Of a stretch of 64,000 bases of DNA, positions 4,976 through 58,194 are shown one piece after another; positions within the stretch are counted from its first letter, which is position 1; each line of letters opens with the position of its first letter. The translations under genes were made by a program, and so were the position numbers. This stretch comes from Candidatus Omnitrophota bacterium (GTDB lineage Bacteria > Omnitrophota > Gorgyraeia > JAHJTE01). The notes beneath the pieces were generated by a model that was not told the DNA's origin, made no database searches, and saw only the letters and a list, made by a program, of their open reading frames with translations. The stretch covers positions 4,288-68,287 of the forward strand of contig JBFMEB010000004.1 in assembly GCA_040753675.1 (NCBI GenBank), read 5' to 3'.

Positions 4976-6607
4976 TTAATACATTCCTCCGCCCATTCCA
5001 CCAGGAGGCATTGCTGGCATAGCTGGCTTCTCCGGATCTGGTTTATCTGCCACCAAGCTTTCAGTAGTAAGTAAAAGCGCTGCAATACTGGAAGCATTCT
5101 GTAATGCAGAACGAGTAACCTTAGTTGGATCAATTACCCCTGCATCTATCATATCAACATATTTGTCCTGGTTAACATCATAACCCTCGTTAGTGGATAG
5201 TTCTTTGATTTTCTGCACAACCACCGAGCCTTCCAGCCCAGCATTAAAGGTAAGTTGGCGAACCGGCTCTTCCAAAGCGCGCTTAATTATATCCACGCCA
5301 ATCTTCTCATCGCCTTTAAGTTTCAATTCATCTAATGACTTAATTGTCCTCAGTAATGCAACGCCGCCGCCAGGGACAATTCCTTCTTCTTTAGCAGCTC
5401 TAGTAGCATGCAAGGCATCTTCTACACGGGCTTTCTTTTCTTTCATCTCGGTTTCCGTAGCTGCGCCAACGTTAATAACTGCTACTCCGCCGGCAAGTTT
5501 TGCTAAACGTTCCTGCAATTTCTCTTTATCATAATCAGAATCGCTAGTCTCAATCTGCTTTTTAATTTGAGCGATTCTGCCGTTTAAAGTGGAAGTTTTT
5601 CCAGCTCCTTCAACGATTGTGGTATTATCCTTGTCTATCTTCACTCTCTTTGCCTTGCCTAAATCATCTAAATTAACGTTTTCTAATTTTATGCCTAAAT
5701 CTTCGGTAATTGCCTTACCGCCGGTCAATATGGCAATATCTTCTAACATTGCTTTGCGTCTGTCGCCGTAACCAGGGGCTTTTACTGCCACGCAGTTTAA
5801 TGTTCCGCGAATCTTATTAACTACTAAGGTAGCTAATGCCTCACCTTCAACATCCTCGGCAATAATAAGCAAAGGTGAACCTATTTTGGCAATCTGCTCT
5901 AAAAGGGGCAATAAATCTTTTAAGGAGCTAATTTTTTTCTCATAGATAAGAATAAGCGGATTATCCAGAACGCATTCCATGCGCTCGGCATCAGTAACAA
6001 AATAGGGTGACAAATAACCTTGGTCAAATTGCATGCCTTCTACCAAGTCTAATGTAGTAGCCATTGATTTTGCTTCTTCTACGGTTATAACGCCATCTTT
6101 ACCGACTTTTTCCATGGCATCGGCAATTAAATCTCCGATAACCTTATCGCAGTTTGAGGCAATATAACCAACTTGTGCGACTTCCTTTTTATCCTTGATA
6201 TCTTTGGATAATTTTTTCAATTCCTCAATTACCCTTTCAACTGCCTTTTCAATGCCGCGCTTTAAAGCCATTGGGTTTGCGCCGGCAGTGACGTTTCTTA
6301 AGCCCTCTTTATATATTGCCTCAGCTAAAATAGTCGCGGTAGTAGTTCCGTCACCGGCAATATCCGAGGTTTTTTCTGCAACCTCTTTAACCATCTGAGC
6401 GCCCATATTTTCATAAGGGTCCTCAAGCTCGATTTCCTTTGCTACAGTGACACCGTCCTTAGTAATAGTTGGCGAACCGAATTTCTTATCCAGAATTACA
6501 TTTCTTCCTTTTGGTCCCAGGGTTACTTTCACTGCTGCGGATAATTGTTCTATACCGCGCAAAATAGCCTGCCGGGCTTCTTCTCTAAATGCTAACTGCT
6601 TTGCCAT
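4976..6607 (-). CDS. groEL: Chaperonin GroEL (Hsp60)
   Basis: 543 aa; [14 protein letters not shown]... with a C-terminal GGM repeat tail ([11 protein letters not shown]). Confidence 0.97.
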
Positions 6608-6620
6608 AATAATCCTCCTT

Positions 6621-6865
6621 TAATGAACAGATAATTTATGGAACGATAGTGACATAAATTATAGTCCCGAAGTTTCGGGACGTCTGTGAATTAAACCCCC
6701 ACACCATATTTTACAGAAAAAATTGGCTTTCAAATAAAACGTTTTTTTCGGATTCAACTTTTTATATTTAATATAAGACATCTTGGTAAAATTGGTGTGG
6801 GGGTAAATTTAACCATACAACTTAGCTTCACCTAATGCTTGTTCGCTAAGTTGTGGCTTCATTTA
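6621..6865. mobile_element. MITE-like repeated intergenic element, copy 1 of 3, inserted between groES stop and groEL start
   Basis: Shares its termini with the copies at 38408-38639 and 47909-48187: AATGA(A/G)CAGAYAAYTTATGGAA at one end and TTCCATAAGTTGTGGCYTCAYTTA at the other. These form imperfect ~16-bp terminal inverted repeats. The internal long stem uses a different, compensatory sequence here (AAACCCCCACACCATATTTTAC / GTAAAATTGGTGTGGGGGT). Confidence 0.6.
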
Positions 6866-7153
6866 CTTTATAATCGCCAGTATATCCTCTTCGCGCATAA
6901 TAATATATTCTTCGCCGTCTTTTGTGGTAATCTCGTTTCCAGCGTATTTTCCATATAATACCTTATCGCCAACCTTGACTTCTAATTTCGCAACTGTGCC
7001 GTTGTCTAAAATCTTGCCTTTACCAACTGCAATTACTTTACCTTCCTGCGGTTTCTCTTTTGCAGTATCAGGCAATACTATGCCGCCTTTTGTCTTGTTC
7101 TCTGCTTCTAATGATTTTATTACTACCCTGTCTCCTAATGGCTGTATATCCAT
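6863..7153 (-). CDS. groES: Co-chaperonin GroES (Hsp10)
   Basis: 96 aa; [44 protein letters not shown]. Confidence 0.95.
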
Positions 7154-7288: not shown

Positions 7289-7315
7289 TTAGCACTCTTT
7301 TTTGTTGATTGCTAA
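7289..7315. promoter_or_regulatory. CIRCE-like HrcA operator upstream of groES
   Basis: TTAGCACTC-N9-GATTGCTAA, against the consensus TTAGCACTC-N9-GAGTGCTAA (one mismatch). It lies about 135 bp upstream of the groES start. Confidence 0.6.
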
Positions 7316-7345
7316 TATTACTGGAAAAAATATTTTACATAATTT

Positions 7346-8140
7346 TTAAATTTTGTCAAGCAAAATCTGAGCAAGTAAAGCAATGCCTCGCAAGGTCAAG
7401 GTCTGGTCTATAAAGTCGACACTTTTCTTTAAAAACGGTATCATTAATTTTGCATCCCCGCCAGTCAAAATTACCTTTGTATCTTTGCCTAAAATATGTT
7501 TTAATTCTCTAATCAGGCCTTTAATCATTAAAGAAGAACCAATCATTACTCCGCTATATATACTTTCACAAGTCTCTGTTCCAATAAGCTTAAATTTCTT
7601 ATTTGCTTTAGGTAATTGTAATTTGGGAAGTAAGGCTGTGCCTTTATCCAAAGCATCAAGGCTCAAATTTAAGCCAGGAGCAATTATACCTCCAAGATAT
7701 TCACCTTTCTTAGAAACAATATCAAAAGTAATTGCAGTACCCATATCAATAATAATTAGCGGCTTGCCATAGATTGTTTTGCCTGCAAAGGCATTGATGA
7801 GCCTATCCTCTCCAACTGATTTTGGTTTTTTGTATAGATTTTTTATAGGAACAATAAGATCCTTACCCAAAATCAATACCTTAATGTCAAAAGTTTTCTT
7901 TAACAATTTAGCTAAAGGATAATTCATATGCGGCACAACGCTACAAATTATTGCACTACTAGTTCTAAAGTGCCTTCTTTTTATTGATAAACCAAAGTGA
8001 GCAATATTCTCCTTAAGTCTTGAGCGACTAATCTTGGTAGGAATTCTAATTTGTGAAATCAATTTGTTGGCTTTAAACAGCCCTAAGTGAATACTGGTAT
8101 TACCTATATCTATGGCGATTATTATTAATTTATGTTTCAT
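7346..8140 (-). CDS. coaX: Type III pantothenate kinase
   Basis: 264 aa; IIAIDIGNTSIHLGLF at the N-terminus, GEDRLINAFAG, and the Fumble/CoaX fold motifs IIDMGTAITFD and LTGGDAKL. Confidence 0.8.
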   Translation of the reverse strand: MKHKLIIIAIDIGNTSIHLGLFKANKLISQIRIPTKISRSRLKENIAHFGLSIKRRHFRTSSAIICSVVPHMNYPLAKLLKKTFDIKVLILGKDLIVPIKNLYKKPKSVGEDRLINAFAGKTIYGKPLIIIDMGTAITFDIVSKKGEYLGGIIAPGLNLSLDALDKGTALLPKLQLPKANKKFKLIGTETCESIYSGVMIGSSLMIKGLIRELKHILGKDTKVILTGGDAKLMIPFLKKSVDFIDQTLTLRGIALLAQILLDKI

Positions 8141-37103: not shown

Positions 37104-38012
37104 TCATCCAAGCACCCTCTCTAAATTCCCTCCTAAAATATCTTCTTTATCTTCTTGTTTTATAGCCAAATCTTTGACTGCCTTAATTGAACCAATTATA
37201 TCCTTTTTTGCTGGCCAGTCGCTACCCCAAAGAAGATGTTTGGGTCCTAATAATTCTAAGGCGGAAAGGAAATTTGTCTTAGATATATCTCCGCTTGTAT
37301 CTACATAAATATTTTTTAAATAAGCAGTAGGGTTATCTTTCAAATCTTTTACGAAATTTATGCCTCTTAACATTTTATAGGTTGCGTCAAAACGCCCAGC
37401 AATATGGCAAGTAATTCCTCCAAAATAGGCAAATATAAATTTGACATCGCAATATTTACGCAAGATATCAGACATCAAAAGCTTTCCTATACAAATGGTG
37501 GTATCAAAGATATATTCAACTACCGGAGTAAGCAAGGGATCATTAACTCTTTCATAACCGATAGGATTAATTATCTGAGAGTGCACAAAAATTGGTATTT
37601 CTTGTTTCAGGGCAATGTCATATATAGGAATAAATGAATTATCATCCAAATATACGCCGTTATAGCTGCTAGCCAGACAGATTGCCTTAAATCCTAAGCC
37701 TTCTCTTGCGCGTTTTAATTCAACTATCATCTGCTCTCGGTTACCATCTGGTAAAACAGCAGCAGCAATGAATCTTTTAGGATAACGCTTAATAATCTTT
37801 GCTATATTATCATTATAAATATGGGCTAACTTCTCCTGCCCACCCAGTTTTAGATGCGCATCAGAAGTTGGATATGTTAACAGCGCCTTATCGATGCCTG
37901 CCTCATCCATCATCTTAAGATGGGCTTCTATATCTGACCAGGCCTTAGAAAAAAAGTGGGCATTTGCTACAATTTCTTCTGGCAACCAATGGCTATGGCT
38001 ATCAATAATCAT
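37104..38012 (-). CDS. Amidohydrolase-2 family metal-dependent hydrolase/decarboxylase
   Basis: 302 aa; N-terminal IIDSHSHW metal-binding HxH, a TIM barrel, and a C-terminal WGSDWP. Confidence 0.75.
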   Translation of the reverse strand: MIIDSHSHWLPEEIVANAHFFSKAWSDIEAHLKMMDEAGIDKALLTYPTSDAHLKLGGQEKLAHIYNDNIAKIIKRYPKRFIAAAVLPDGNREQMIVELKRAREGLGFKAICLASSYNGVYLDDNSFIPIYDIALKQEIPIFVHSQIINPIGYERVNDPLLTPVVEYIFDTTICIGKLLMSDILRKYCDVKFIFAYFGGITCHIAGRFDATYKMLRGINFVKDLKDNPTAYLKNIYVDTSGDISKTNFLSALELLGPKHLLWGSDWPAKKDIIGSIKAVKDLAIKQEDKEDILGGNLERVLG

Positions 38013-38404
38013 TTGTGGTCCGTGCTTTTTAGAATTCGCTCAATCATCTCTTTCTCATAAAGAGATTTTATTTCTTTTAAGCCTGCTCTTCCTAATACCT
38101 TAACTATGGCCTTTTCAATCGCCTTTAATTTAAATACTAGGAAACTATATTGCGGATGGAAAGCCTTATCCTCAAATTTTAAATTAAGCCCCTCTTTTTC
38201 CTTATTTTCGATATAAAGAGAAAACTCATCAATAAATTTACCTATTTCTTTTTTACTTCTGTGCCTTTTTAATTCTTTTAGCAAAAATTTATCAATCGAA
38301 AGTTGAGTAAATTTCCTCTCAATTCTGTCTAAGGATTCTTTAGTAGTCTTATACAACCAGATTAAATACCTTTTCTTTAAATCTTTTATATCTGCTTTTT
38401 CCAT
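38009..38404 (-). CDS. Hypothetical protein
   Basis: 131 aa, charged and helical. No motif recognised. Confidence 0.4.
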   Translation of the reverse strand: MEKADIKDLKKRYLIWLYKTTKESLDRIERKFTQLSIDKFLLKELKRHRSKKEIGKFIDEFSLYIENKEKEGLNLKFEDKAFHPQYSFLVFKLKAIEKAIVKVLGRAGLKEIKSLYEKEMIERILKSTDHK

Positions 38405-38407
38405 TTC

Positions 38408-38639
38408 AAATGAGCAGACAACTTATGGAAGCTTTAGCGACGTAAGTTGTAGACCTTCGGTCGTCTGCGAATTTGACCCAGCACTTATTTTACTGCCAGT
38501 CTTAGCATTAAAATTTTAAGTTTTATTAAAATAAAAACTTCCTTTTTATTACCCAGCTTTTTAGTAAAATAAGTGCTGGGTAAGTTCGGCCAGACAACTT
38601 ATGTCGTCCTTTATGATCCATAAGTTGTGGCCTCACTTA
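38408..38639. mobile_element. MITE-like repeated intergenic element, copy 3
   Basis: Termini AAATGAGCAGACAACTTATGGAAG ... CATAAGTTGTGGCCTCACTTA, with an internal long stem ACCCAGCACTTATTTTAC / GTAAAATAAGTGCTGGGT. It abuts the start codon of the 38009-38404 gene. Its TAA (within CACTTATT) is the stop codon of the SDR gene. Confidence 0.6.
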
Positions 38640-39413
38640 TTCCTTAGGATGGTCTTGTTTATAGGGTATTACTGGTTTTGTCCAAGGCGTCTGCTGGTTA
38701 ATTACGGCAATTTCCAAAGGGCAGACATTGGCCGGAACAGTTAAGGCAAATCTTACCGCATTCTCAATCGCTTCCGTAGTCATAAGGCGCGAGCTATCGG
38801 TAGTTATTTCTTGCAATTTCCCGGTAAGGTCTGTGTCGGTTACACCCGGCAATATCGAAGTTACTTTTATGCCGTGGTCGCGTAATTCCCAAAATAGCCC
38901 TTTAGAAAAAGCCCGTAAACCGACTTTCAAGGAACTATAGACAATGAAATTCCTTGGTAAGGGATCGCAAAGAGTAGAACCGGAAACCATATTAATAATT
39001 GCACCCTCTTTGTTTTTTATCATATCATTTATGACTAAACGGATAAGCCGAACATAACCCAAATAGTTTGTATGGCTGAGTTTTTCAAAATCTTCAAGGG
39101 GCTGTTTTTCAAATGGGTACTGGCTAGAGACTCCGGCGTTGTTTATCAAGATATCTATTGAATGAAATTTCTCTTTAGTTTTATTAACCAAATTCTGGAG
39201 GTCTTCTAATTTAGTTACATCGCAAGGAATAGTTAAAATCTCTACTTTGTATTTTTTCTTAATTTCATCTGCTGTTTCAATTAGAGGGCCTTCCTGACGC
39301 GCGGCAAGACTCAAATTAATGCCTAAACTTGCCACGGTATTAGCTATGGCCTTTCCTATTCCCCGACTTGCACCGGTAATGATTGCGGTTTTTCCTTTTA
39401 GATTAACACTCAT
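38637..39413 (-). CDS. SDR family oxidoreductase (ketoreductase-like)
   Basis: 258 aa; TGASRGIGKAIA, NNAG, and the S...YxxxK catalytic spacing. Confidence 0.85.
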   Translation of the reverse strand: MSVNLKGKTAIITGASRGIGKAIANTVASLGINLSLAARQEGPLIETADEIKKKYKVEILTIPCDVTKLEDLQNLVNKTKEKFHSIDILINNAGVSSQYPFEKQPLEDFEKLSHTNYLGYVRLIRLVINDMIKNKEGAIINMVSGSTLCDPLPRNFIVYSSLKVGLRAFSKGLFWELRDHGIKVTSILPGVTDTDLTGKLQEITTDSSRLMTTEAIENAVRFALTVPANVCPLEIAVINQQTPWTKPVIPYKQDHPKE

Positions 39414-46900: not shown

Positions 46901-47905
46901 TTAATTAAATAACTCCTTTGTGTTATTAATCAATTCTTCTTTAGTAAAAAATTTATTTTTTCGTTCAACTTCATGAACCATATCAACTAATTTCTTATTT
47001 AAGAATGCATTAATATTATTTTCCTCTGCAATTCTTACAAATTCACCATTTATATAATCTATTTCTGAAAGCCTGCCCCGTTTAATGCTCTGCAATATTG
47101 AGCCATACAATGGTTCCTTGCTTAAATTAGCCATAATAGAAGAAAATATCTTGGCTGCTTCTAGATTAGAGAGAGAAGTTAATTTAGTCAATCTTTCTAA
47201 CGGAAAATCAGGCAATGAAACTAAATTTATGCCGGCTTTATTGATAACTTTAAGCCCTTCTTTCCATATTGCAATACTTATGCGGCTAATCTCAATATCA
47301 GAAAAGGCCTCTTGCATACTCACGCCTAATATTGCGCTTATACAGTTATTTGCATTTACAAACATTTTCAAATACTTCATTCCTTTTATGTTATCAGAAA
47401 CAATTACCGGAAAAATTTTATTTAGGATTCTACTAATTTCTGTTACTATTTCGTCATTTTTATTAAAAGTCCTGCCGATTATCCAACTACCTTCAAAATT
47501 ATGCACTACCTTAGCCGGCTCTAAATACGTAGAGCCAAACATAACAATACTTGAGATAATATTATCTTTGGAGATATATTTTGCAACTATTGTTTCTGCC
47601 TGAATGCCGTTCTGGGTTGTCAATATAAGCGTATCTTTAATCAGATTTATATTTTCTTTTAATGCTGTCTCTATATCCTGTGTCTTAGTTGCCAAAATTA
47701 TTAAATCAGGCCTGTGGTTTAATTTTTCATAAGCCTCTATTCCTATTTTAAAATCTCCCTTTACTCCTGAGATCTCTAAGCCCTTTTCTTTTATTGCCTT
47801 AACTGAACTCTTATGGCCGACTAAAGATATCTCTTCGCCCTTAGATTTTAAATATCCAGCTACAAGACAACCAATTGCTCCAGCTCCAATTACTGCTATT
47901 TTCAT
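46901..47905 (-). CDS. Ketopantoate reductase (ApbA/PanE) family NAD(P)-dependent oxidoreductase
   Basis: 334 aa; MKIAVIGAGAIGCLVAGYL Rossmann start and ApbA-family length. Confidence 0.75.
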   Translation of the reverse strand: MKIAVIGAGAIGCLVAGYLKSKGEEISLVGHKSSVKAIKEKGLEISGVKGDFKIGIEAYEKLNHRPDLIILATKTQDIETALKENINLIKDTLILTTQNGIQAETIVAKYISKDNIISSIVMFGSTYLEPAKVVHNFEGSWIIGRTFNKNDEIVTEISRILNKIFPVIVSDNIKGMKYLKMFVNANNCISAILGVSMQEAFSDIEISRISIAIWKEGLKVINKAGINLVSLPDFPLERLTKLTSLSNLEAAKIFSSIMANLSKEPLYGSILQSIKRGRLSEIDYINGEFVRIAEENNINAFLNKKLVDMVHEVERKNKFFTKEELINNTKELFN

Positions 47906-47908
47906 ATT

Positions 47909-48187
47909 AAATGAGCAGATAATTTATGGAACGTAAGTGACATAAATTATAGCCCCGCCCTTTTATTAATCCATATTTAGACGAACCCAGCCCAAAAGGG
48001 CGGGGCGTCTGCGAATTTAACCCAGCACTTATTTTACTAAAAAGCTGGGTAATAAAAATTAAGATTTTATTCAAAGAAAATTTATTTTATTTCAAATTAA
48101 AGCCTGGCAATAAAATAAGTGCTGGGTAAGTTCAGCCATACAACTTATGTCGTTCTTACGAACTTCCATAAGTTGTGGCTTCACTTA
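47909..48187. mobile_element. MITE-like repeated intergenic element, copy 2
   Basis: Termini AAATGAGCAGATAATTTATGGAACG ... TTCCATAAGTTGTGGCTTCACTTA, with internal CCCCGCCC..GGGCGGGG hairpin and the ACCCAGCACTTATTTTAC / GTAAAATAAGTGCTGGGT long stem. Its TGA (within CTTCACTT) is the stop codon of the 48181-48438 gene. Confidence 0.6.
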
Positions 48188-48438
48188 GGAAAGCCATACT
48201 TTTTATAATCAAAACCTGTCTGCTCTAAGAGCCGAACCATCATGCTATAAAATGGGGACGGCACGTCTGAAAAAAATGCGCTTATAACATCCAATTCTTC
48301 AACTAAAGAAGAATTCCTAAGCCTCGCATTTTCTTCTGCCCTTTTAGTAACAACCTGCTCAGTAATGTGCCGATGGAAAACAGGAATCTTTGAAATCATC
48401 AGTTTGAGCTTTTCTTGAGTTTTGCTTTCCCAGTCCAT
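48181..48438 (-). CDS. Small hypothetical protein
   Basis: 85 aa. No motif recognised with confidence. Confidence 0.4.
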   Translation of the reverse strand: MDWESKTQEKLKLMISKIPVFHRHITEQVVTKRAEENARLRNSSLVEELDVISAFFSDVPSPFYSMMVRLLEQTGFDYKKYGFPK

Positions 48439-49011: not shown

Positions 49012-49082
49012 AGCGGGCAACGGGGATCGAACCCGTGTAGGTGGCTTGGAAGGCCACTGCACTACCGCTGTGCTATGCCCGC
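49012..49082 (-). tRNA. tRNA-Gly (anticodon TCC)
   Basis: Manual fold: acceptor GCGGGCA/TGCCCGC, D-arm GCAC..GTGC, anticodon stem GTGGC/GCCAC with loop CTTCCAA, T-arm ACGGG-TTCGATC-CCCGT, discriminator T. Confidence 0.85.
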
Positions 49083-49088
49083 ATGGCC

Positions 49089-49334
49089 CTACAGAAGATG
49101 TCTCTTTAAAAATGCTCTTCCTGAACCAGTCTTAAAATATCTCTCTAGATTAACTGCCAATCGTAGGTTTTTAATACCGATATAAGAAATTAATTCGAAT
49201 GGTCTATAGTTAGCGGTAGATAATTTACTATTTTCTGAGTTGTGTTCTTCTAATCTTCTCTCTAAATTATTGGTATAACCAGTATAGGTATAACTCTGCT
49301 TCTTTATACTTTTAAGGAAATAAACATACCACAT
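49089..49334 (-). CDS. GIY-YIG nuclease family protein
   Basis: 81 aa; WYVYFLKS...YTGYTNNLERRLEEHN (GIY-YIG motif). Confidence 0.75.
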   Translation of the reverse strand: MWYVYFLKSIKKQSYTYTGYTNNLERRLEEHNSENSKLSTANYRPFELISYIGIKNLRLAVNLERYFKTGSGRAFLKRHLL

Positions 49335-49394
49335 TAGTTATCTCTTAGTGTCCGCCTTCGTCTTCCAAAGAGAATTTAATCACTTGACTACGGC

Positions 49395-49671
49395 GGACAT
49401 TCGCCGAAGCCAAACGCAAAGCATTTGGCGAAGGCGAATGGACAGGAGAGGATTTGAACTTACCATAGGGGCTCTCTGCCCCTCCATGGCGTCGTCACCC
49501 CAAGGCTGACTCCTGTCACCCCGTAGTGTAACTAAAGTTAGCTATTCTTGAGGGGAAAATCATCTTTTCCCCTCAAGCTCCTCTTTTGTTCAAATCCTTA
49601 CTGGCGTTAAATTCTTCGAAGCTTAAACATGAAGCGAACGCAGTGAAGCGAAATATTTAAGCGTAGTAGAG
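49395..49671. mobile_element. Small inserted element (212-bp core at 49460-49671) flanked by a duplicated tRNA-Tyr 3' end
   Basis: TGGACAGGAGAGGATTTGAAC occurs at 49439-49459 and again as the real tRNA-Tyr 3' end at 49672-49692. A diverged duplicate of the tRNA-downstream flank lies at 49395-49438. The core carries hairpins AGGGGCTCTGCCCCT and GGGGAAAATCATCTTTTCCCC, also found at 58206-58430. Confidence 0.5.
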
Positions 49672-49753
49672 TGGACAGGAGAGGATTTGAACCTCTGAAG
49701 CTATGCGCAACAGATTTACAGTCTGCCCCCTTTGGCCACTTGGGTACCTGTCC
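49672..49753 (-). tRNA. tRNA-Tyr (anticodon GTA), long variable arm
   Basis: Manual fold: acceptor GGACAGG/CCTGTCC, anticodon stem GCAGA/TCTGT with loop CTGTAAA, long variable arm, T-arm AGAGG-TTCAAAT-CCTCT, discriminator A. Confidence 0.8.
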
Positions 49754-49842
49754 GTTAAAAAAATTATTGCTAAATTGCTATCTGCTAAATTGCTTTTTAT
49801 ATGACAATTTAACAATGGAACAATATAGCAATTTATATTTTA

Positions 49843-49918
49843 TGGAGCCGACGAGAGGAATTGAACCCCCGACCCAGGGTTTACAAAACCCTTGCTCTAC
49901 CAACTGAGCTACGTCGGC
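49843..49918 (-). tRNA. tRNA-Thr (anticodon TGT), CCA encoded
   Basis: Manual fold: acceptor GCCGACG/CGTCGGC, D-arm GCTC..GAGC, anticodon stem AGGGT/ACCCT with loop TTTGTAA, T-arm CGGGG-GTTCAAT-TCCTC, 3' TCCA. Confidence 0.8.
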
Positions 49919-58117: not shown

Positions 58118-58194
58118 TGGTGGCGGGGGAGGGATTTAAACCCTCGACCAATCGGGTATGAGCCGAATGCTCTATCGGGCTGAGCTACCCCGCC
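58118..58194 (-). tRNA. tRNA with CAT anticodon (elongator Met or lysidine-Ile2), CCA encoded
   Basis: Manual fold: acceptor GGCGGGG/CCCCGCC (1-72 paired), D-arm GCTC..GAGC, anticodon loop CTCATAC, T-arm GAGGG-TTTAAAT-CCCTC, 3' ACCA. The anticodon stem lacks the three consecutive G:C pairs of initiator tRNA. Confidence 0.75.

Follow-up and report, generated by a model that had tools for sequence, protein, structure and literature searches.

A family of hairpin modules set into Omnitrophota gene junctions, possibly kept as structured intercistronic elements

What kind of element fits between two genes so exactly that it supplies the stop codon of the first and touches the translation signals of the second? 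The question is raised by a palindromic element in a 64,000-nucleotide stretch of Candidatus Omnitrophota DNA (contig JBFMEB010000004.1; hereafter the window, meaning the whole stretch analysed), one copy of which fills the space between groES and groEL. The phylum Omnitrophota is uncultured and widespread, its cells are mostly ultra-small, and we know of nothing reported on its gene-expression signals. An earlier note, made from the letters of the window alone, had listed three copies and called them similar to miniature inverted-repeat transposable elements (MITEs). We confirmed the three copies with a 1-nt shift of their boundaries, and found that they belong to a palindromic family of a known general kind that is more general than the window and has no described counterpart in Omnitrophota. 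Our explanation, which we hold at even confidence, is that this is an ancient family resembling hairpin MITEs or the repetitive extragenic palindromic (REP) sequences, bacterial interspersed mosaic elements (BIMEs) and REP doublets (REPINs), placed at Omnitrophota gene junctions and retained as a structured intercistronic element that likely acts in RNA.

All three copies are on the minus strand, the one that encodes every gene adjoining them, and each is exactly intercistronic:

6620–6865, minus strand: copy 1, a full element that occupies the groES–groEL spacer with its L module, H2 hairpin and R module, with boundaries taken from the module anchors; the open reading frames (ORFs) around it are 6863–7153 (Cpn10, groES) and 4976–6607 (Cpn60, groEL), assigned by Pfam
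38407–38639, minus strand: copy 2, a full element between an SDR-family gene (38637–39413) and a 131-aa ORF (38009–38404)
47908–48187, minus strand: copy 3, a full element between an 85-aa ORF (48181–48438) and a PanE/ApbA-family gene (46901–47905)

The terminal and internal motifs of the element occur two to three times in the window, against 0.00–0.03 occurrences expected from shuffles, and the mean column identity among the three copies is 73%. Each copy is composed of a conserved L hairpin module of ~62 nt, a variable central hairpin (H2) and an R module that is an inverted, diverged relative of L. Fold z-scores relative to shuffled sequence are −6.5, −9.4 and −8.6 for copies 1, 2 and 3. 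From its foot inwards, the L module has P1, an outer helix of 5 bp; tandem G.A mismatches; P2, a helix of 4 bp; a bulge of 2 nt; P3, a helix of at least 9 bp; and a small variable tip that frequently ends in a GNRA- or GAA-type loop. Its consensus reads T-N-A-R-T / G-A / R-G-C-C / A-Y-A-A-Y-T-T-A ... T-A-A-R-T-T-R-T / N-T / G-G-C-Y / G-A / A-Y-T-N-A, and its start, T-A-A-R-T-G-A, makes stop codons available in two reading frames. H2 always has the form CCC...GGG, with two sequence types and A+T-rich loops in the window. In the R module CAG/CTG replaces the GCC/GGC core, and an extra GC hairpin stands at the bulge. The parts of the three copies are as follows:

6804–6865, minus strand: L module of copy 1; covariance-model match of 69.4 bits; P1 TAAAT/ATTTA, P2 AGCC/GGTT, a 2-nt bulge and P3 ACAACTTAGC/GCTAAGTTGT; internal loop with GA opposite AA where the family has tandem G.A
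6696–6803, minus strand: H2 of copy 1; type CCCCCACACCAATTTTAC...GTAAAATATGGTGTGGGGG with an A+T-rich loop
6620–6695, minus strand: R module of copy 1; CAG/CTG core; plus-strand covariance-model match of 24.2 bits; outer helix TTTAAT/ATTAAA, directly adjoining the groEL AGGAGG; inserted GC mini-hairpin GTCCCGAAACTTCGGGAC at 6664–6681, flagged as terminator-like
38581–38639, minus strand: L module of copy 2; P1 TAAGT/ACTTA; covariance-model match of 74.0 bits
38467–38580, minus strand: H2 of copy 2; type a (CCCAGCACTTATTTTAC...GTAAAATAAGTGCTGGG)
38407–38466, minus strand: R module of copy 2; outer helix TCAAAT/ATTTGA; plus-strand covariance-model match of 27.9 bits
48127–48187, minus strand: L module of copy 3; P1 TAAGT/ACTTA; covariance-model match of 71.7 bits
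48021–48126, minus strand: H2 of copy 3; type a
47908–48020, minus strand: R module of copy 3; long GC hairpin at the bulge; outer helix TTAAAT/ATTTAA

The inverted-repeat ends of ~16 bp described in the earlier note correspond to the P3 arms of L and R; the ends are indeed inverted repeats, but each is itself a hairpin module rather than a simple repeat.

These parts meet the flanking genes with single-nucleotide precision. The groES stop codon is the TAA at 6863–6865, that is, nt 0–2 of P1 in the L module of copy 1, and the TAA at 38637–38639 that ends the SDR-family gene takes the same place in copy 2. The 85-aa ORF ends with the TGA at 48181–48183 inside TAAGTGA (module nt 4–6, reading ...CCT AAG TGA), and its last two codons fall within P1 of copy 3. 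The stop frame had been said to vary among the copies; TAA and TGA are indeed both used, the order being TAA, TAA, TGA and not TAA, TGA, TAA. At the other end, the Shine-Dalgarno sequence AGGAGG of groEL (6614–6619; ATG at 6605–6607) touches copy 1, and an ATG stands 2 nt past copy 2 (38402–38404) and 2 nt past copy 3 (47903–47905). The genes 3' of copies 2 and 3 are without a recognisable Shine-Dalgarno sequence. Intergenic spacers in the window are often 50–190 nt long, so exact abutment is not explained by lack of room.

How far does this arrangement extend? A search pattern for the L hairpin that excluded the terminus matched at least 118 stretches in species-representative genomes, with ~80 assemblies among the matches listed; among these listed matches, all but one chance match came from Omnitrophota metagenome-assembled or single-amplified genomes or from contigs with automated Planctomycetes–Verrucomicrobia–Chlamydiae (PVC) labels. 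At least 120 further metagenome contigs were retrieved with a pattern built on one arm of H2 type a. The sample examined comprised about 450 modules in 1.6 Mb, in loci of about 1–15 kb around the copies (numbered, as in L050). In the metagenome contigs retrieved, chosen because they carry the repeat, module anchors occur at ~3.6 per 10 kb. Between the window and several Omnitrophota loci we observed stretches of 64–71% nucleotide identity.

Two forms recur in the family, namely the full element (L, H2, R), with 140–435 nt between its ends, and a single module followed by one hairpin ending in GGAT(C). Many members have a single module, and doublets in which both modules score highly are found, for example, in L023, L013, L056, L020 and L050. 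H2 belongs to a few sequence types common to different genomes, including both window versions; the copy 1 stem type is also found in L005, L030, L036, L055, L065, L078, L088 and L103, and the copy 1 R type in the third copy of L050. Recurring unit types, such as the H2 types and a GC mini-hairpin, thus make the family a mosaic in the manner of BIMEs. The mini-hairpin, CCCGAARNTTCGGG, is nested in loops and bulges of various modules (window 6664–6681, L050:5510–5530, L011, L060 and L105). The closely related loci L004 and L060, which are 94–97% identical, differ by it in a module tip, and it may be a separate small insertion unit.

Neither Rfam nor the literature searched offered a match to the family. 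Rfam 15 at gathering score returned four tRNAs only from the window; at E up to 10 copy 3 gave weak chance matches only, far under gathering scores, and at E up to 1 no match overlapped a module in four related loci. Our search of the literature on Omnitrophota (Omnitrophica) repeats or RNA motifs found no description of the element. A 2023 Omnitrophota survey mentions no more than routine Rfam annotation. Four pattern matches in IMG/VR viral contigs, none of them full-length to the covariance model, were taken as chance, and carriage by phages was set aside. Typical modules also occur in several assemblies labelled "uncultured Planctomycetales/Planctomycetia", and L074 (MAYW01000026, labelled Candidatus Scalindua rubra) has several; these contigs may carry wrong labels and belong to Omnitrophota, or the family may reach other PVC lineages.

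The fold of the element is preserved by paired changes. In an alignment of 117 L modules, 98.2% of cells are paired versus 86.7% after shuffling (0 of 500 shuffles as high) and 258 cells carry double changes versus 67 in shuffles, pairing counts that kinship of the sequences inflates here and below; the covariation score is 0.337, versus 0.117 shuffled and at most 0.065 with the partners slid. Two Y/R positions left free by the search pattern are C-G or U-A in 114/117 and 117/117 sequences. P1, which lay outside that pattern, has all of its bases paired in 281 of the 359 modules, where 97 would be expected and no more than 117 were reached in 500 shuffles; its second position shows A-T in 183 cases, T-A in 87 and C-G in 34. 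For H2 type a, found through its 5' arm only, the exact 3' arm was present in 103 of 126 cases, the variable position being A/T in 88 and T/A in 15 with no mismatch, across loops of 2 to 235 nt.

The same pattern appears when individual copies are compared. Between the window copies, the R-Y pair is either G-C or A-T, and the three R outer helices are three different compensated sequences. Same-junction copies of distant species (L033/L093 and L052/L086) differ by compensated changes in P1 and P2. In the window, in L132 and in L236, among which GroES is 76–82% identical, homologous full elements occupy the groES–groEL junction, and 18 of 50 predicted pairs are compensated. The proposal that structure is kept by compensatory change thus held for every helix tested, with strong covariation. 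Its original illustration, the central stem, does come in two versions with complementary changes; these turned out to be two hairpin types spread across genomes and not private to the window.

The junction geometry seen in the window is likewise family-wide. The upstream stop codon falls within the first 20 nt of the module in 43 of 77 L modules that have a same-strand upstream ORF, at nt 0–2 (TAA) in 24, at nt 4–6 (TGA) in 14 and at nt 17–19 (TAG) in 5. For full elements between co-directional ORFs it lies in nt 0–20 in 45/69 (28 with TAA at nt 0–2 and 12 with TGA at nt 4–6). The downstream start is within −2 to +4 nt of the element in 19/69 and 5–20 nt away in 18/69; 13 further starts called at −12 probably come from gene calls extended into the element. 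AGGAGG directly adjoins the module in at least eight loci. The earlier claim that the copies are exactly intercistronic, with termini that supply stops and abut starts, therefore holds both in the window and across the family. Copies inside genes or at random positions are not the rule: ORFs of at least 80 aa take up 87% of the bases, whereas only 50 of 359 modules overlap one by more than 30 nt and the remaining 309 fall outside them.

Other features also border modules. At five loci an L module lies 0–2 nt from a tRNA 3' end, meeting or overlapping it:

L002:2295–2367: tRNA-Thr
L104:5841–5913: tRNA-Thr
L063:245–326: tRNA-Leu
L116:2056–2128: tRNA-Gly
L066:1252–1330: tRNA-Pro

In L113 a module stands just 3' of a 5S rRNA gene on the opposite strand, so stable-RNA operons have been colonised too. 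The window itself has four minus-strand tRNA genes at 49012–49918 and 58121–58194, three of them clustered ~1 kb from copy 3. Terminator T-tracts continue into T-rich P1 variants. A subfamily with a T-rich outer helix (TTATT or TTTTT; L028, L045, L052, L086, L101 and L118, e.g. L101:2890–3010) carries a terminator-like GC hairpin with a T-tract 5' of the module and a hairpin of similar stem (TCCCGC...GCGGGA) 3' of it; this apparent terminator may belong to the element itself.

At two start-abutting junctions the Shine-Dalgarno sequence of the empty orthologue (GGAGGG, GAGGAGGAG) is missing from the occupied one:

L026:3241–3302 (compared with L031:5196–5210)
L026:5689–5752 (compared with L020:4509–4536)

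The densest run of elements is at L050:3073–6434, where four of five successive junctions in or just after rnf genes carry a full element:

L050: elements at rnfG/rnfE, at rnfA/rnfB, between rnfB and a PurN-like gene, and on the 3' side of the PurN-like gene; rnfE/rnfA without one

This array suggested an integron attC/cassette array, which we rejected: the flanks are the core operons groESL and rnfG/E/A/B, the module core CAYAAC...GTTRT is unlike the core sites RYYYAAC/GTTRRRY, and no integrase is among the recurrent ORFs.

How do host boundary bases come to form part of a paired helix? The P1 variants are a small set (TAAGT, TAAAT, TTAAT, TCAAT and CAAAT), and their type tracks the neighbouring host feature, TAA types going with incoming stops and TTA/TCA types with outgoing starts. 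Where TGA is the stop, the last codon of the host gene is Lys (NNT AAG TGA). One junction reads GCT AAG TGA GG in L039 and GCT AAG TAA GTGAGG in L199, which suggests that the TGA cases may arise by loss of one AAGT repeat. One answer is a guide-directed mobile element, in which the outer P1 strand would be the flanking target and the inner strand a 5-nt guide, in the manner of IS200/IS605 targeting or group I intron reverse splicing. It concerns spread only, is compatible with our explanation, and we consider it quite unlikely. It would account for exact junctions without target duplication, of which we found none, and for the covariation of the P1 strands both across 359 modules and between copies within one genome, as well as for the correlation of P1 type with host feature. 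Furthermore, the outer P1 sequence is present in some empty sites (TAAAT in L048, TAAGT in L072, TAAAT in L067 and TTG before AGGAGG in L020), and in L075 a module P1 uses tRNA anticodon-loop bases beside a group I intron. However, five empty sites differ from the occupied ones in the two bases after the stop, the outer strand is missing from the empty site in the L151/L096 polymorphism, the T-rich P1 subfamily shares upstream sequence across genomes, and the small set of P1 variants is compatible with inherited subfamilies. The inverted ends are also unlike those of IS200/IS605, and in the loci sampled we found no TnpA, RAYT (REP-associated tyrosine transposase) or TnpB. The evidence is thus mixed as to whether inherited P1 subfamilies, co-evolution after insertion or guide-directed targeting placed the boundary bases in the helix.

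A bolder version, which we regard as unlikely, sees the family as operon punctuation with an addressing helix, in which boundary bases pair with an internal guide, combined with stop/start coupling at the base of the element. The outer helix would pair a stop codon, the edge of a Shine-Dalgarno sequence or a tRNA 3' end with the guide, and base pairing, instead of a target read by a protein, would direct insertion or later co-evolution. The folded transcript would then join the left-foot stop and the right-foot start, and a ribosome terminating upstream would melt the foot and expose the downstream start across an insert of 150–280 nt.

The L075 locus deserves separate description. At L075:6318–6705 a tRNA gene is split in the anticodon loop, its 5' half ending ...GATGGCTGTCAA and its 3' half beginning CCATCGTGTCCGAGGTTCGAGTCC, with a group I intron core between the halves (RF00028, 76.7 bits, 6449–6658); the tRNA is not called by ARAGORN. 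The 5' exon is followed, ahead of the intron core, by an L module with an H2 hairpin, and the P1 of this module takes in the anticodon-loop bases TCAA. A general link between the family and group I introns was rejected, this intron being the only one in 1.6 Mb and the window copies having no match to the intron model.

The modules are strongly polar with respect to the genes. Single GCC-type modules between co-directional genes are sense in 46 cases and antisense in 13. Sense modules have a GCC, GAC or GGC core in 101/121 and antisense modules a CAG, CAC or CGC core in 68/103, and over all typed modules 154 agree with the gene direction and 27 oppose it (about 85% the same way). Opposite-skew cases, which amount to three modules in two loci at one orthologous junction, all follow the genes. 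In the window, the minus strand carries 56 of the 57 ORFs called and the plus-strand GC skew is negative throughout 1–64000 (−0.11 to −0.17), so the window is apparently one replichore with its genes co-oriented with replication.

Copies inside operons with fixed polarity are expected to be co-transcribed with the genes around them. For copy 1, a CIRCE-like operator (TTAGCACTC-N9-GATTGCTAA, one mismatch; window 7289–7315) and a near-consensus sigma-70-type promoter (TTGACA-16-TAAAAT; window 7332–7359) stand upstream of groES, which leads us to expect HrcA-type heat-shock control of a transcript that includes copy 1. No promoter-like site was flagged within copy 1. The central stem is not a relative of CIRCE: the two share only AGCACT, a 6-mer coincidence, and the true CIRCE is upstream of groES.

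Is the family mobile, and are its copies retained? Occupancy of orthologous junctions differs between species (L010 and L097 versus L048; L039 versus L059, L072 and L076; L031 versus L020; L067 versus the window; L076 versus L072; L108 versus L043), the host stop codon keeping its position between occupied and empty junctions. The gene pair around copy 3, for example, has no element between its adjacent members in L022 and L067. In the window (filled) and in L067 (empty) the upstream protein ends ...YGFPK*, and in L022 (empty) it has four extra residues. L026 and L031 hold differently oriented versions at one junction, and L151 and L096, with flanks 88–91% identical, differ by a 108-nt H2+R block beside a common L module. 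These differences in occupancy, orientation and block content imply that the units are independently gained and lost.

Most direct signatures of transposition were not seen. In 93 full elements there is no consistent 2–5 bp direct repeat (2- and 3-bp models TA, TAA and TNA), a test whose power the A+T-rich flanks limit; TAA is often at both ends, left TAA often occurs with right TGA, and left TGA never with right TGA. We found no transposase inside or next to the ~450 modules in 1.6 Mb, and ORF clustering revealed no recurrent neighbouring gene family and no integrase among the recurrent ORFs. Convergent modules stand 140–435 nt apart, the few wider pairs enclose host housekeeping genes only, and 11 ORFs bracketed by modules are likewise housekeeping genes, judged by their N-terminal sequences. 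A tblastn search of 883 kb (the window and L001–L118) with E. coli RAYT and IS200 TnpA queries gave nothing below E = 0.68. The earlier label MITE-like is therefore apt for the inverted termini, the L and R modules being inverted relatives that each form a self-pairing hairpin of ~60–110 nt, and less apt otherwise, given termini that are ~62-nt modules, the many single modules, and a search that found neither target-site duplication nor autonomous partner.

The copies appear old, since no pair of full elements is at least 88% identical, including within genomes, of which few copies each were sampled, and no young copies that would define the termini were in the sample. L014 and L034 are 78.4% identical over 7.5 kb, and the element is a perfect run of 150 nt, the next longest being 32 nt. 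L054 and L079 share identical runs of 71 and 46 nt on an 83% background. JBAZOE01 supplies both L034 and L079, and its copies at those two loci are not the same. Copies in L052/L086 and L033/L093 are slightly better conserved than their flanks. A look for contigs of the same species turned up no record of the exact GroES protein and, by megablast, no metagenome contig matching the window.

These data bear on a purely selfish reading, which we consider doubtful. The family would be a non-autonomous transposon (MITE or REPIN) whose hairpins are kept for recognition by a transposase, with insertions elsewhere being lethal and the terminal stops rendering those at gene ends harmless. Inverted terminal modules, many copies per genome, presence and absence at orthologous junctions and the restriction of copies to extragenic DNA all agree with it, and REPIN–RAYT systems are vertically inherited and persist for very long (PMC3116915; bioRxiv 10.1101/2022.05.22.493013). 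However, transposition constrains active copies only, whereas here 98% of cells are paired in copies that are old, with no pair at 88% identity or more. Orthologous copies in the two clearest species pairs have diverged less than the coding genes beside them, while copies within a genome differ, and the failure to find a transposase or a target-site duplication also speaks against it. A selfish-only reading is insufficient because nearly all of the old, independent copies stay paired and some orthologous copies outlast neighbouring coding sequence.

Taken together, we propose that the units spread into gene junctions as non-autonomous mobile DNA and that copies have long been kept under selection for the folded structure. 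On insertion, a module starting T-A-A-R-T-G-A would take the exact place of the upstream stop and offer stops in two frames, and the far end would be set directly against the Shine-Dalgarno sequence or start codon of the next gene. Operon placement, sense polarity, a stop in the first helix and a start beside the last favour a role in the transcript, where the structured RNA between cistrons could be an exonuclease barrier, a processing site, or a hairpin that sets relative expression or translational coupling. What the comparisons show directly is the anatomy of the elements, their distribution and polarity, the geometry at the junctions and the constraint on structure; from these we infer both the mechanism of mobility and the action in RNA.

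Several points weigh against this explanation. Mismatches show no strand asymmetry (G.T/A.C = 20/16 in sense and 21/17 in antisense modules); GCC-type modules at first seemed biased, at 20:6, but the bias was gone once modules were sorted by transcription direction. Stems of a palindrome can stay paired through templated repair, with no selection needed. In nearly all loci the gene strand is the one with positive GC skew, and polarity could follow the replication strand instead of transcription. In L132/L236 the module is conserved no better than its flanks, and informative orthologous pairs are few, with clear excess conservation in two of them (L014/L034 and L054/L079). Finally, a mobile origin is suggested by presence/absence patterns, while no enzyme, duplication or near-identical copies were seen in the sample.

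The mismatch result also fits a DNA-level structure, which we think very unlikely, in which the element would be a binding or extrusion site for an Omnitrophota nucleoid-associated, topoisomerase, recombination or replication protein. E. coli REP/BIME elements bind gyrase and integration host factor (IHF). The phylum-wide conservation of unpaired positions (the G.A pairs, the bulge T and the GCC core) suggests a protein partner, and the paired modules are inverted, as for double-stranded or cruciform recognition. However, a symmetric DNA site needs neither strong gene polarity nor distinct L and R types, and the exact stop/start overlap and operon placement point to the transcript. GNRA-like tips and tandem G.A pairs are typical of RNA, yet both also occur in DNA hairpins.

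With three copies in this 64-kb window and members in the core operons groESL and rnf, the family is apparently a major feature of Omnitrophota genomes. A complex sequence found phylum-wide, with exact stop/start overlap and lasting pairing, offers a natural case for asking whether a repeat is a parasite or a domesticated regulatory part. If the outer helix were a guide–target pairing, it would amount to a simple programmable insertion system. In annotation, stop and start calls beside the repeats can be fixed by rule, and the family provides a phylum-specific signature for binning.

Among known systems, REP hairpins are known to stabilise upstream mRNA. The closest general likeness is to REP/BIME and REPIN–RAYT elements, which are extragenic imperfect palindromes, often between co-transcribed genes (PMC3116915; PMC3337134; bioRxiv 10.1101/2022.05.22.493013); inverted doublets whose spacer can fold as one long hairpin, a mosaic built of few unit types, and vertical inheritance with long persistence are further points in common. 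REPs, however, are 20–40 nt long, whereas the module is ~62 nt long, is interrupted by internal loops and a bulge, and has a variable tip. Their hallmark GTAG/CTAC is not conserved here, being absent from the consensus of the 117 aligned sequences and from their invariant columns (starting T-N-A-R-T-G-A-R-G-C-C), and no RAYT was found beside the ~450 modules. The module core is common to a phylum rather than a genus, populations of identical copies were not seen, and the terminus overlaps stop codons.

Correia/NEMIS elements of Neisseria, ERIC/IRU of Enterobacteria and RUP/BOX of pneumococcus are similarly non-autonomous, 100–300 bp long, with inverted ends, near genes and co-transcribed with them. 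The folded RNA of such hairpin MITEs is cut by RNase III or RNase E, which alters mRNA stability. Pneumococcal repeats offer a comparison for processing of folded RNA and mRNA stability (PMC3049150). Correia and RUP duplicate a TA target and have known parent insertion sequence families, neither of which we found for the modules; here, unlike in hairpin MITEs, each terminus is a covarying hairpin with strong gene polarity and exact stop-codon overlap.

Mycobacterial interspersed repetitive units (MIRUs) were reportedly described by Supply et al. in 1997 as intercistronic in operons, oriented with the genes, with ends overlapping the flanking stop and start codons. The resemblance in placement, orientation and overlap with both codons is close, but MIRUs are tandem direct repeats of 46–101 bp with small ORFs thought to couple translation, and lack palindromes or hairpin modules. 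A MIRU-type repeat was rejected for our family, whose elements are palindromic and not tandem and in which the upstream frame stops within the first 7 nt.

In IS200/IS605 elements, end-proximal bases pair with a short internal guide through partly non-canonical contacts. They and the palindrome-associated transposable elements (PATEs) resemble the family in hairpin ends, lack of target duplication and orientation bias, but IS200/IS605 ends are not inverted repeats, their left-end guide contacts lie on one side of the hairpin, and a TnpA/TnpB partner was not found in our sample. We accordingly set aside an IS200/IS605 derivative (PATE), which the hairpin ends and missing duplication fit and the inverted ends do not; no TnpA-like sequence was found in the 883 kb searched. 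Rickettsia palindromic elements, finally, are palindromes of ~100–150 bp that are dispersed over a streamlined genome and have long been retained there; they typically lie in frame inside protein and RNA genes, whereas the Omnitrophota elements are extragenic.

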